Origin: Escherichia coli
GTDB lineage: Bacteria; Pseudomonadota; Gammaproteobacteria; Enterobacterales; Enterobacteriaceae
Strand: one strand, 5' to 3'
Length of the DNA: 64,000 nt
Assembly: GCF_016026235.1 (NCBI RefSeq)
Contig: NZ_CP065613.1
The notes beneath the pieces were generated by a model. The model was not told the origin of the DNA. It did no database searches and worked only from the letters and a program-made list of their open reading frames with translations. Position numbers and translations under genes: made by a program. This document shows positions 21,678-26,086 of this stretch, one piece after another (position 1 is the stretch's first letter; each line of letters begins with the position of its first letter).

Positions 21678-21893
21678 ATTTGCCTCGGATTCACGTTTAT
21701 CAGTGTTGTTTTTTGGCTGGCAGCCAGAAGGGAGTCAGGCTGATATTTTGACAATAATCCGGGTTCGCGATTCTCGCCATAACACCAAAGAATAATTTTT
21801 AGAGGTGATGAGTTGCTTAGTTACATAACGATTGTATGACGAAGGCATAACATGCTGTAGATCACATCAGGTGAACGCCGTAAGAAAATATCT

Positions 21894-22070
21894 TGTGATT
21901 CAGATCACAAAGATTCAACAAACCATCAAAACAAAAATGTGACATTAGTCACATTTAAATGCCATTTTTAGCGAAAATCGCCGCCTTGTGGCTTTTTTAC
22001 ACAAGCGTTTTGTGATGAACATCACGCCAATTACCTCTCTACCCCCTATATTTATGTGATTGATATCACA
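21894..22070 (+). promoter_or_regulatory. mtlA promoter region with four consensus-like CRP sites (21894-21909, 21938-21953, 22011-22026, 22055-22070)
   Basis: TGTGA-N6-TCACA read directly: TGTGATTCAGATCACA, TGTGACATTAGTCACA, TGTGATGAACATCACG, TGTGATTGATATCACA. The mtl promoter is known to carry multiple CRP sites. Confidence 0.7.
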
Positions 22071-22213
22071 CAAAAGGCCGTCGACTGGACAGTTAACCGA
22101 TTCAGTGCCAGATTTCGCAGTATCTACAAGGTCCGGCTACCTCTGCCGCCACATTAACAAAAAACCTCGGGCTTCCAGCCTGCGCGACAGCAAACATAAG
22201 AAGGGGTGTTTTT

Positions 22214-24121
22214 ATGTCATCCGATATTAAGATCAAAGTGCAAAGCTTTGGTCGTTTCCTCAGCAACATGGTGATGCCAAATATCGGCGCGTTTATCGCG
22301 TGGGGTATCATCACCGCGTTATTTATTCCAACAGGGTGGTTACCGAACGAGACGCTGGCGAAGCTGGTCGGGCCGATGATCACTTATCTCCTGCCGCTGC
22401 TGATCGGTTATACCGGTGGTAAGCTGGTAGGCGGCGAACGTGGCGGCGTAGTCGGTGCCATCACCACCATGGGCGTTATCGTCGGCGCAGACATGCCGAT
22501 GTTCCTCGGTTCTATGATTGCAGGTCCGCTGGGCGGCTGGTGCATTAAGCACTTCGACCGCTGGGTAGACGGTAAGATCAAATCCGGTTTTGAGATGCTG
22601 GTGAACAACTTCTCCGCAGGCATCATCGGGATGATCCTCGCCATTCTGGCATTTCTCGGCATTGGCCCGATTGTTGAAGCCCTGTCCAAAATGCTGGCTG
22701 CGGGCGTTAACTTCATGGTTGTCCATGACATGCTGCCGCTGGCGTCTATCTTTGTTGAACCGGCGAAAATCCTGTTCCTCAACAACGCCATTAACCACGG
22801 TATCTTCTCGCCGCTGGGTATTCAGCAGTCCCATGAACTGGGTAAATCCATATTCTTCCTGATTGAAGCTAACCCAGGTCCGGGTATGGGGGTGCTGCTG
22901 GCGTACATGTTCTTTGGTCGTGGTAGCGCTAAACAGTCTGCGGGCGGTGCGGCAATTATCCACTTCCTGGGTGGTATCCACGAAATTTACTTCCCGTATG
23001 TGTTGATGAATCCGCGTCTGATCCTGGCCGTTATCCTCGGCGGTATGACTGGCGTGTTCACGCTGACTATCCTGGGCGGTGGTCTGGTTTCTCCGGCATC
23101 TCCGGGTTCTATCCTTGCTGTACTGGCGATGACACCAAAAGGTGCTTATTTCGCTAACATCGCGGGTGTGTGTGCGGCGATGGCTGTCTCCTTTGTTGTC
23201 TCTGCTATTTTGCTGAAAACCAGCAAAGTGAAAGAAGAAGATGATATTGAAGCAGCAACTCGTCGTATGCAGGACATGAAAGCTGAGTCTAAAGGTGCAT
23301 CTCCGCTGTCTGCGGGCGATGTGACTAACGACCTGAGCCACGTACGTAAAATCATCGTTGCCTGTGACGCCGGTATGGGTTCAAGTGCGATGGGCGCAGG
23401 CGTGCTGCGTAAGAAAATTCAGGATGCAGGTCTGTCGCAGATTTCTGTTACTAACAGCGCGATCAACAACCTGCCGCCAGATGTGGACCTCGTCATCACT
23501 CACCGTGACCTGACCGAACGCGCTATGCGCCAGGTTCCGCAGGCACAGCATATTTCGCTGACCAACTTCCTCGACAGCGGCCTGTACACCAGCCTGACCG
23601 AACGTCTGGTTGCTGCCCAGCGCCATACTGAAAACGAAGTGAAAGTGAAAGTGAAAGACAGCTTTGACGATTCCAGTGCTAACCTGTTCAAACTGGGCGC
23701 GGAGAACATCTTCCTCGGTCGCAAAGCTGCCACCAAAGAAGAAGCGATTCGTTTTGCTGGCGAGCAGTTGGTGAAAGGCGGTTACGTTGAGCCGGAATAC
23801 GTTCAGGCGATGCTGGATCGTGAAAAACTGACCCCGACTTATCTGGGTGAGTCTATCGCGGTGCCACACGGTACGGTTGAAGCGAAAGATCGCGTACTGA
23901 AAACGGGCGTGGTGTTCTGCCAGTACCCGGAAGGCGTGCGCTTCGGTGAAGAAGAAGATGACATTGCCCGTCTGGTGATTGGTATTGCTGCCCGTAACAA
24001 CGAGCACATTCAGGTTATCACCAGCCTGACCAATGCACTGGATGATGAGTCCGTCATCGAGCGTCTGGCACACACCACCAGCGTGGATGAAGTGCTGGAA
24101 CTGCTGGCAGCTCGTAAGTAA
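22214..24121 (+). CDS. mtlA: PTS mannitol-specific EIICBA component
   Basis: 635-aa ORF starting [27 protein letters not shown]…, matching the MtlA N-terminus. Confidence 0.93.
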
Positions 24122-24149: not shown

Positions 24150-24265
<116 letters not shown>

Positions 24266-24350
24266 CCCCTCTCCTCACGGAGAGGGTTTGGGTGAGGGAA
24301 AAGCCTCACCCCAGCCCTCTCGGGTAAAAACATTGATGAAGGTTAATACT

Positions 24351-25499
24351 ATGAAAGCATTACATTTTGGCGCAGGTAATATCGGTCGTGGCTTTATCGG
24401 TAAACTGCTGGCAGACGCGGGTATACAACTGACGTTTGCCGATGTCAATCAGGTGGTACTTGATGCCCTGAATGCCCGTCATAGCTATCAGGTTCATGTG
24501 GTCGGTGAAACCGAGCAGGTAGATACCGTTTCTGGCGTCAATGCTGTCAGCAGCATTGGTGATGATGTCGTTGATCTCATTGCTCAGGTTGATTTAGTCA
24601 CTACCGCCGTTGGCCCGGTAGTGCTGGAACGTATTGCTCCGGCTATCGCCAAAGGGCTGGTGAAACGTAAAGAACAAGGTAATGAATCTCCGCTGAACAT
24701 CATCGCTTGTGAAAACATGGTCCGCGGCACCACGCAACTGAAAGGCCATGTGATGAACGCCCTGCCGGAAGACGCCAAAGCGTGGGTAGAAGAACACGTT
24801 GGCTTTGTCGATTCCGCCGTTGACCGCATCGTACCGCCTTCGGCTTCTGCAACTAACGATCCGCTGGAAGTGACGGTAGAAACCTTCAGCGAATGGATTG
24901 TCGATAAAACTCAGTTCAAAGGCGCACTGCCGAACATCCCAGGCATGGAGTTAACCGACAACCTGATGGCATTTGTCGAACGTAAACTCTTCACCCTGAA
25001 CACGGGTCATGCTATAACCGCGTACCTCGGAAAACTGGCCGGTCATCAGACCATTCGTGACGCGATTCTCGACGAGAAAATCCGCGCGGTGGTAAAAGGT
25101 GCGATGGAAGAAAGTGGTGCAGTATTGATCAAGCGCTACGGCTTTGACGCTGACAAGCATGCGGCGTACATCCAGAAAATCCTCGGCCGTTTTGAGAACC
25201 CGTATCTGAAAGATGATGTAGAGCGCGTAGGCCGTCAGCCGCTGCGTAAACTGAGCGCAGGCGACCGTCTGATCAAGCCACTGCTCGGTACGCTGGAATA
25301 CGGCCTCCCGTACAAAAATCTGATTCAGGGAATTGCCGCTGCAATGCACTTCCGCAGTGAAGATGATCCGCAGGCTCAGGAACTGGCAGCACTGATCGCC
25401 GACAAAGGTCCGCAGGCGGCGCTGGCACAGATTTCCGGGCTTGATGCCAACAGCGAGGTTGTATCTGAGGCGGTAACCGCTTATAAAGCAATGCAATAA
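24351..25499 (+). CDS. mtlD: Mannitol-1-phosphate 5-dehydrogenase
   Basis: The ORF-track ORF 24033..25499 reads through the REP region; the true start at ATG 24351 ([17 protein letters not shown], Rossmann motif) gives 382 aa. Confidence 0.9.
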
Positions 25500-26086
25500 T
25501 GGTGGACCAGGCGCAGGACACCCTGCGCCCGAATAACAGATTGTCAGATATGCAGGCAACAATGGAACAAACCCAGGCCTTTGAAAACCGTGTGCTTGAG
25601 CGTCTGAATGCTGGCAAAACCGTGCGAAGCTTTCTGATCACCGCCGTCGAGCTCCTGACCGAGGCGGTAAATCTTCTGGTGCTTCAGGTATTCCGCAAAG
25701 ACGATTACGCGGTGAAGTATGCTGTAGAACCGTTACTCGACGGCGATGGTCCGCTGGGCGATCTTTCTGTGCGTTTAAAACTCATTTACGGGTTGGGCGT
25801 CATTAACCGCCAGGAATACGAAGATGCGGAGCTGCTGATGGCATTGCGTGAAGAACTAAATCACGACGGCAACGAGTACGCCTTTACCGACGACGAGATC
25901 CTTGGACCCTTTGGTGAACTGCACTGCGTGGCGGCGTTACCACCGCCGCCACAGTTTGAACCAGCAGACTCCAGTTTGTATGCAATGCAAATTCAGCGCT
26001 ATCAACAGGCTGTGCGATCAACAATGGTCCTTTCACTGACAGAGCTGATTTCCAAAATCAGCTTAAAAAAAGCCTTTCAAAAGTAA
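25499..26086 (+). CDS. mtlR: Mannitol operon repressor
   Basis: 195-aa ORF whose start overlaps the mtlD stop; position matches mtlR. Confidence 0.85.
   Translation: MVDQAQDTLRPNNRLSDMQATMEQTQAFENRVLERLNAGKTVRSFLITAVELLTEAVNLLVLQVFRKDDYAVKYAVEPLLDGDGPLGDLSVRLKLIYGLGVINRQEYEDAELLMALREELNHDGNEYAFTDDEILGPFGELHCVAALPPPPQFEPADSSLYAMQIQRYQQAVRSTMVLSLTELISKISLKKAFQK

Follow-up and report, generated by a model that had tools for sequence, protein, structure and literature searches.

Why does the mannitol operon of Escherichia coli carry so dense a cluster of CRP sites in front of its first gene, and does the spacing of these sites matter as much as their sequence? The question is raised by the yibI-mtlA intergenic region (positions 21678-22213), 536 bp between two ORFs of the window, that is, of the whole 64-kb stretch of DNA that was analysed. 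The divergent neighbour is yibI (minus strand, up to 21677), which encodes a DUF3302 protein, and the regulated gene is mtlA (22214..24121, plus strand), which encodes the mannitol PTS enzyme IICBA with the Pfam domains EIIC, IIB and EIIA_2. It is followed, in the K-12 gene order, by mtlD (24351..25499, plus strand; mannitol-1-phosphate 5-dehydrogenase, Pfam Mannitol_dh and Mannitol_dh_C) and then by mtlR (25499..26086, plus strand; Pfam MtlR PF05068), the gene of a repressor without a DNA-binding domain. All three genes are intact 3' of the array. MtlA and MtlR are 99% and 100% identical, respectively, to the K-12 proteins, and mtlR (PF05068) and mtlA share one operon, as expected of an operator at which MtlR is anchored through CRP. 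The intergenic region is found in 5404 of 5426 complete E. coli genomes, in one copy each, and its annotation is always yibI on one side and mtlA on the other.

Two small features of the operon itself were recorded in passing. MtlA is 635 aa long here and 637 aa in K-12, with a 2-residue deletion and a few substitutions relative to K-12 at residues ~473-481 of the IIB-IIA linker, and the mtlA-mtlD spacer holds a REP-like element (24231-24287) that reaches 40 bits with the Rfam family naRNA4, under the gathering score of 59.5.

Five CRP sites upstream of mtlA

The first-pass annotation of this DNA had reported a dense array of four TGTGA-N6-TCAC(A/G) sites within 180 bp (21894-22070), three of them with both half-sites perfect. 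By sequence reading and exact pattern search, the four 16-mers are TGTGATTCAGATCACA at 21894-21909 (CRP2), TGTGACATTAGTCACA at 21938-21953 (CRP3), TGTGATGAACATCACG at 22011-22026 (CRP4) and TGTGATTGATATCACA at 22055-22070 (CRP5), together spanning 177 bp; the three perfect ones are CRP2, CRP3 and CRP5, and CRP4 ends in TCACG. Exact search of the 64-kb window for TGTGA-N6-TCAC[A/G] returned 4 matches, all in this array, against a chance expectation of 0.16 per window, and the observed count was attained in 0 of 100 dinucleotide shuffles.

The sites were scored with a symmetrised 22-bp CRP weight matrix (consensus AAATGTGATCTAGATCACATTT) derived from 18 classical CRP sites; its absolute scores are approximate. 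Among the ~64,000 positions of the window, CRP3, CRP5, CRP4 and CRP2 occupy ranks 1-4, which places all four reported sites above background. CRP3 (21935..21956, AAATGTGACATTAGTCACATTT; centre 21945.5, or -175.5) is perfect, has consensus flanks and gives the top score of the window, 19.4 bits. The promoter-proximal CRP5 (22052..22073; centre 22062.5, or -58.5; 17.6 bits) is likewise perfect and class I-like in placement. CRP4 (22008..22029; centre 22018.5, or -102.5; 13.2 bits) reads TGTGA-N6-TCACG and keeps 9/10 core bases, and CRP2 (21891..21912; centre 21901.5, or -219.5; 12.8 bits) is a perfect TGTGA-N6-TCACA. The density of the reported array is far above chance, but its count of four was one short: a weaker site, CRP1 (21848..21869, TAACATGCTGTAGATCACATCA; centre 21858.5, or -262.5), had been missed, with the half-sites CATGC...TCACA (7/10 core bases), a score of 10.2 bits and rank 10. 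With respect to the 22-bp palindromic CRP-site consensus AAATGTGA-N6-TCACATTT, the five sites all lie well above background.

From CRP1 to CRP5, the centre-to-centre spacings are 43, 44, 73 and 44 bp, so that three pairs stand 43-46 bp apart, namely CRP1-2 (43 bp), CRP2-3 (44 bp) and CRP4-5 (44 bp). Among 200 windows of 64 kb simulated with a Markov-1 model, clusters of matches of at least 12 bits within 200 bp reached a maximum of 2, versus 4 observed, and simulated 536-bp regions of intergenic composition held a mean of 0.04 matches of at least 12 bits. The pattern counts, the weight-matrix ranks and the simulations together demonstrate that the array is real and far beyond chance.

Correspondence with the published mtlADR operator

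The array is the control region that has been published for the mannitol operon of E. coli, fully known from the same locus and the same species. In the K-12 mtlADR operator, CRP1-CRP5 are placed at -262.5, -219.5, -175.5, -102.5 and -58.5 (Lee et al., NAR 2026, PMC13421365), and the five CRP sites of the mtl operator are credited to Ramseier & Saier 1995, as cited in PMC13421365. Since the spacings in the window (43/44/73/44) are identical to the published ones, the four sites noticed first correspond to CRP2-CRP5 and the missed site to CRP1. Comparison with the K-12 mtlA promoter thus shows that the sites coincide with experimentally characterised CRP sites of the K-12 mtl operon. The published core-base counts, 7/10 for CRP1 and 10/10 for both CRP2 and CRP3 (PMC13421365), agree with those obtained here.

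The intergenic region is 99% identical to that of K-12 MG1655, with 7 substitutions in 536 bp and no indels. CRP3 has two of the substitutions in its N6 and CRP4 has one, and a further one directly follows CRP4; none lies inside a half-site or alters the spacing, and the matrix scores are practically equal in the two strains. The K-12 operator and the window have the locus, the neighbouring genes, all five sites and the 43/44/73/44 bp spacings in common, and differ by these seven point differences.

Because this five-site control region is already published, the array is ordinary and serves only as a positive control. In that capacity it does what the first-pass annotation had expected of it as an internal control for promoter-level signals: the weight matrix and the spacing recover the known architecture to the base, and promoter-level signals of the window are reliably readable from sequence. 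The five-site mtl operator has been known since 1995; an explanation of the logic behind its spacing followed in 2026.

Spacing and conservation across species

In a cross-species scan of one genome per species, pairs of perfect TGTGA-N6-TCACA sites with a centre-to-centre distance of 33-56 bp were sought, and at least 120 loci were obtained. As the scan demanded one perfect site pair, the conservation of that pair is in part a product of the selection, which does not extend to the second pair, the 73-bp gap or the promoter distance; CRP4 and CRP5 were unselected in most loci. Among the matches listed, 18 of the 20 perfect pairs spaced at 44 bp are located directly upstream of an mtlA homologue, versus 1 of the 111 perfect pairs at other spacings, the single case lying inside the mtl array of an Actinobacillus (Fisher p = 6e-19). 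The mtlA-linked 44-bp pairs come, again among the matches listed, from Enterobacter, Citrobacter, Klebsiella, Pluralibacter, Superficieibacter, Pseudescherichia, Pectobacterium, Brenneria, an Orbaceae and an Actinobacillus. Within this sample of matches listed, CRP pairs 44 bp apart are essentially a signature of the mtl operon, and the scan is a small independent confirmation of the 44-bp spacing specificity.

Other perfect pairs at 43 bp in Gammaproteobacteria, among the matches listed, were set aside, with no mtl gene and no recurrent pattern; one (L048) is located upstream of a LuxR-type regulator and another (L086) upstream of an HlyD/ABC exporter operon.

The layout as a whole was analysed with the weight matrix on the 480 bp upstream of mtlA. 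The (43-)44-73-44 arrangement was recovered in 16/16 Enterobacterales among the matches listed, Brenneria having 74 for 73, and the same 480 bp gave a 40-44 layout in the Actinobacillus and a single 44-bp pair in the Orbaceae genome. In a MAFFT alignment of the 16 Enterobacterales, taken from the matches listed, column conservation is 96% in the half-sites, 44% in the N6 and 50-58% in the inter-site spacers; it is 0.40 upstream of CRP1 and 72-77% in the promoter and leader. Retention of the half-sites and not of the central N6 is the conservation pattern of CRP sites. The half-sites of CRP2 are invariant in the 16 Enterobacterales (among the matches listed), CRP4, without having been selected by the scan, has an invariant TGTGA and TCAC across genera, and the CRP1 16-mer is partly conserved across genera, with a mean identity of 0.59. 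Among the matches listed, the 44-73-44 layout is a length code kept from Escherichia to Pectobacterium.

Predicted core promoter and leader of mtlA

Downstream of CRP5, a putative -35 hexamer of the mtlA promoter, TGGACA (22086..22091, plus strand), lies within a conserved CTGGACA and fits the transcription start site (TSS) derived from the published coordinates. The weak extended -10-like element predicted 17 bp past it, TGcCAGATT (22106..22114, plus strand), comprises a TG at 22106-22107 and CAGATT at 22109-22114, and the block GTGCCAGATT at this element is nearly invariant across the aligned genomes. From CTGGACA to the centre of CRP5 the distance is 23.5 bp in 14/14 Enterobacteriaceae among the matches listed. 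Compared with lac, CRP5 is about 2 bp closer to the -35 hexamer. At -58.5 in the published coordinates, CRP5 stands ~3 bp away from -61.5, the canonical class I position. TGGACA and CAGATT match the sigma-70 consensus at only 8/12 positions, which explains why a consensus scan of the region reported no consensus-like sigma-70 promoter on the plus strand. A core promoter as weak as this would fit an activator-dependent promoter. Arithmetic from CRP5 = -58.5 predicts, rather than maps in this strain, a TSS at ~22121.

The promoter spacer, a conserved block, also contains on the minus strand a candidate operator half-palindrome for Cra (FruR), ACTGAATC/GGTTAA (22093..22106), which would match the Cra consensus, RSTGAAWC/SNTHHW; a Cra operator at 22093-22106 is possible. 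Fis and Cra sites have been reported in the mtl promoter, the Cra site without coordinates (PMC13421365).

Counted from the predicted TSS to the ATG, the 5' untranslated leader of mtlA would be 93 nt long (22121..22213, plus strand), with a conservation of 0.77; stretches strongly conserved across Enterobacteriaceae include CCGGCUACCUCUGCCG and ACCUCGGGC. No Rfam family was found in the yibI-mtlA intergenic region and leader even at a permissive E-value, folding of the leader against shuffles revealed no unusual stability (z = -0.25), and the consensus fold of the aligned leaders consists of two short hairpins only (-3.5 kcal/mol). On the Rfam and folding results, the idea that the intergenic region or the leader holds a riboswitch or other structured RNA was rejected; a protein- or sRNA-binding role for the leader is conceivable.

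CRP activation and MtlR repression

We hold with high confidence that the region is the mtlADR operator-promoter, composed of CRP1-CRP5, a predicted weak sigma-70 promoter TGGACA-N17-(TGc)CAGATT, and CRP pairs on which MtlR docks. The sites, scores, spacing, conservation and mtlA linkage were computed here, and binding, docking and the requirement for individual sites are taken from the literature, where the evidence consists of EMSA, chromosomal site mutants and spacing variants (PMC13421365). On the K-12 sequence, cAMP-CRP binds CRP2-CRP5, and CRP1 weakly; CRP is essential for mtl activation, and strains mutated on the chromosome in CRP2, CRP4 or CRP5 lose expression and no longer grow on mannitol, those mutated in CRP3 are mildly affected, and CRP1 can be dispensed with (PMC13421365). 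In gel-shift experiments, MtlR supershifts CRP-DNA only when two CRP sites stand 43-46 bp apart; altered spacing destroys MtlR binding, and malK sites re-spaced to 44 bp gain it (PMC13421365). Upon mannitol transport, enzyme II-Mtl is dephosphorylated and captures MtlR at the membrane; dephospho-HPr competes for the MtlR surface that is used by enzyme II-Mtl, and repression returns in the presence of glucose (PMC13421365). The array had initially been taken to fit the catabolite control of the mannitol operon. This part stands, since CRP dependence and catabolite repression are published (PMC13421365), but it is incomplete, as the 43-44 bp spacing is also the recognition code of MtlR, which docks on two DNA-bound CRP dimers (PMC13421365).

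The proposed sequence of events is as follows. At high cAMP, CRP dimers would occupy CRP2-CRP5, with CRP5 acting as a class I-like activator and the upstream sites presumably needed architecturally. Without mannitol, an MtlR dimer, itself unable to bind DNA, would bridge CRP dimers 43-46 bp apart (CRP2/3 and CRP4/5), and this bridging would turn the activator array into a repression complex. Transport of mannitol would dephosphorylate enzyme II-Mtl (MtlA), leading to MtlR's sequestration at the membrane; with glucose present, dephospho-HPr would predominate and displace MtlR from MtlA, and repression would be restored.

The intergenic region is common to the divergent yibI and mtlA, and the distal sites CRP1 and CRP2 might serve a yibIH promoter instead of, or besides, that of mtlA. 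CRP1 stands ~180 bp away from the start codon of yibI, and mtl expression can do without it, but CRP2 is essential for mtl expression (PMC13421365), and conservation upstream of CRP1 is low (0.40). In Citrobacter, Pseudescherichia and two metagenome-assembled genomes (L037, L106), the array has a yibI homologue at its flank. The array is also kept where the available upstream flank holds no yibI homologue, namely in Pluralibacter, Pectobacterium, Klebsiella sp. BIGb0407, Enterobacter sp. Ag1, Enterobacter sp. BIGb0383 and Superficieibacter, and it therefore travels with mtlA; assignment of the distal sites to yibIH is improbable.

The classical reading (Ramseier & Saier 1995, as cited in PMC13421365) is that of an array of activator sites that add up to catabolite control, their spacing having no role in repressor docking. 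It agrees with the scores of all four strong sites, which are those of ordinary CRP sites, and with the need for each of CRP2, CRP4 and CRP5 in activation (PMC13421365). However, additive activation leaves aside that 44-73-44 is held in 16 Enterobacterales (among the matches listed) while the spacer sequence drifts, and that perfect pairs with a 44-bp spacing hardly occur outside mtl operons (among the matches listed); as it is also contradicted by the published spacing-variant gel-shifts, malK re-spacing included (PMC13421365), we regard it as very unlikely. The view that TGTGA/TCACA words have clustered by chance in this AT-rich intergenic DNA, in whose favour the AT-richness of the region speaks and nothing further, can be dismissed for practical purposes, given 0.16 matches expected versus 4 observed, simulated clusters that never exceed 2, and half-sites conserved across genera.

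The 73-bp gap between CRP3 and CRP4

Within the mtlADR operator-promoter with its MtlR-docking pairs, the only mildly new point is the gap between CRP3 and CRP4, which is length-invariant yet sequence-free. Between the two 16-mers it occupies 21954..22010 and corresponds to 73 bp centre to centre, or about 7.0 helical turns. Among the matches listed, the distance is 73 bp in 15/16 Enterobacterales and 74 bp in Brenneria, and the mean column identity of the gap, 0.50, is the lowest of the array, with a conserved T-tract inside it at ~21993-22000. Against this fixed length, CRP5 and the ATG are separated by a variable 148.5 to 179.5 bp, and it is the leader that is better conserved in sequence.

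Constraint on length without constraint on sequence suggests a single phased scaffold, and we tentatively raise the possibility, itself rather doubtful, that the array is one fixed-geometry nucleoprotein scaffold and not two independent CRP pairs. The two pairs, either bridged by MtlR or occupied by CRP only, might then have to face each other in a defined phase, looped or wrapped, for example, so that the array can activate and/or repress; looping or an architectural role of the array has been speculated on (PMC13421365).

Two terminator-like elements in this part of the region were discarded. The hairpin at 21980-21992 followed by a T-run is attributed to chance because its stem is broken in K-12 by a G-to-T difference and its columns are poorly conserved across genera, only the T-tract being conserved, and a minus-strand match at 21956-21935 is merely the palindromic CRP3.

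Comparison with known CRP-dependent systems

The closest relatives in mechanism are the CytR-CRP complexes of deoP2, cdd and udp, in which, as in mtl, a repressor is held by two DNA-bound CRP dimers at a set tandem spacing (PMC13421365). CytR carries a DNA-binding domain of its own, and its operator lies between the CRP sites, which are about 50-53 bp apart. MtlR lacks such a domain and reads only the 43-46 bp geometry (PMC13421365). The malK (malEp-malKp) region resembles mtl in having a multi-site CRP array, of four sites, with an architectural role in a sugar-uptake operon; its specific regulator, however, is MalT. The adjacent malK sites are 34 bp apart, and MtlR binds only after re-engineering to 44 bp (PMC13421365). 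The class I promoter lacP1, with one site at -61.5, has its likeness in CRP5, which is located upstream of weak -35/-10 elements at a fixed distance from the -35. In mtl, by contrast, CRP5 is at ~-58.5 and is insufficient alone, the far-upstream CRP2 and CRP4 also being essential (PMC13421365).

Other loci with CRP-like sites

Three further matrix matches in the window, at 129-150 (12.0 bits, rank 6), 246-267 (12.6 bits, rank 5) and 280-301 (10.6 bits, rank 8), fall between bax and malS, upstream of where malS starts (~398) and near GGATGA-type words that resemble MalT boxes. The matches at 129-301 are plausibly the CRP input of the malS promoter. In this strain, malS is ~22 kb upstream of mtlA; the distance in K-12 is ~34 kb, and ~12 kb of K-12 between the two genes would presumably be missing here. 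In FDAARGOS_943, the closest strain, the DNA near xylF has been rearranged by IS1 and IS66.

The cross-species material contains a recurrent Pasteurellaceae locus with two perfect CRP sites 51-53 bp apart that flank a conserved TGAGCGAATGCGAAAAT, a sandwich of the CytR type, in Haemophilus, Rodentibacter, Aggregatibacter and Bisgaard taxon 45 (entries L002:3836, L006:6415, L015:2588, L024:2027, L032:4447, L083:4894 and L089:6465). In a second recurrent Pasteurellaceae locus, 49-50 bp separate the CRP sites, and the TGTAATCGTTTTCA between them is similar to a LacI-family operator (L005:4640, L023:570 and L031:6765). Finally, a Tannerella metagenome-assembled genome carries tandem 23-bp units, each with TGTGA-N6-TCACA, on three contigs (L092:318-470, L093:2841-2950 and L094:187-320).
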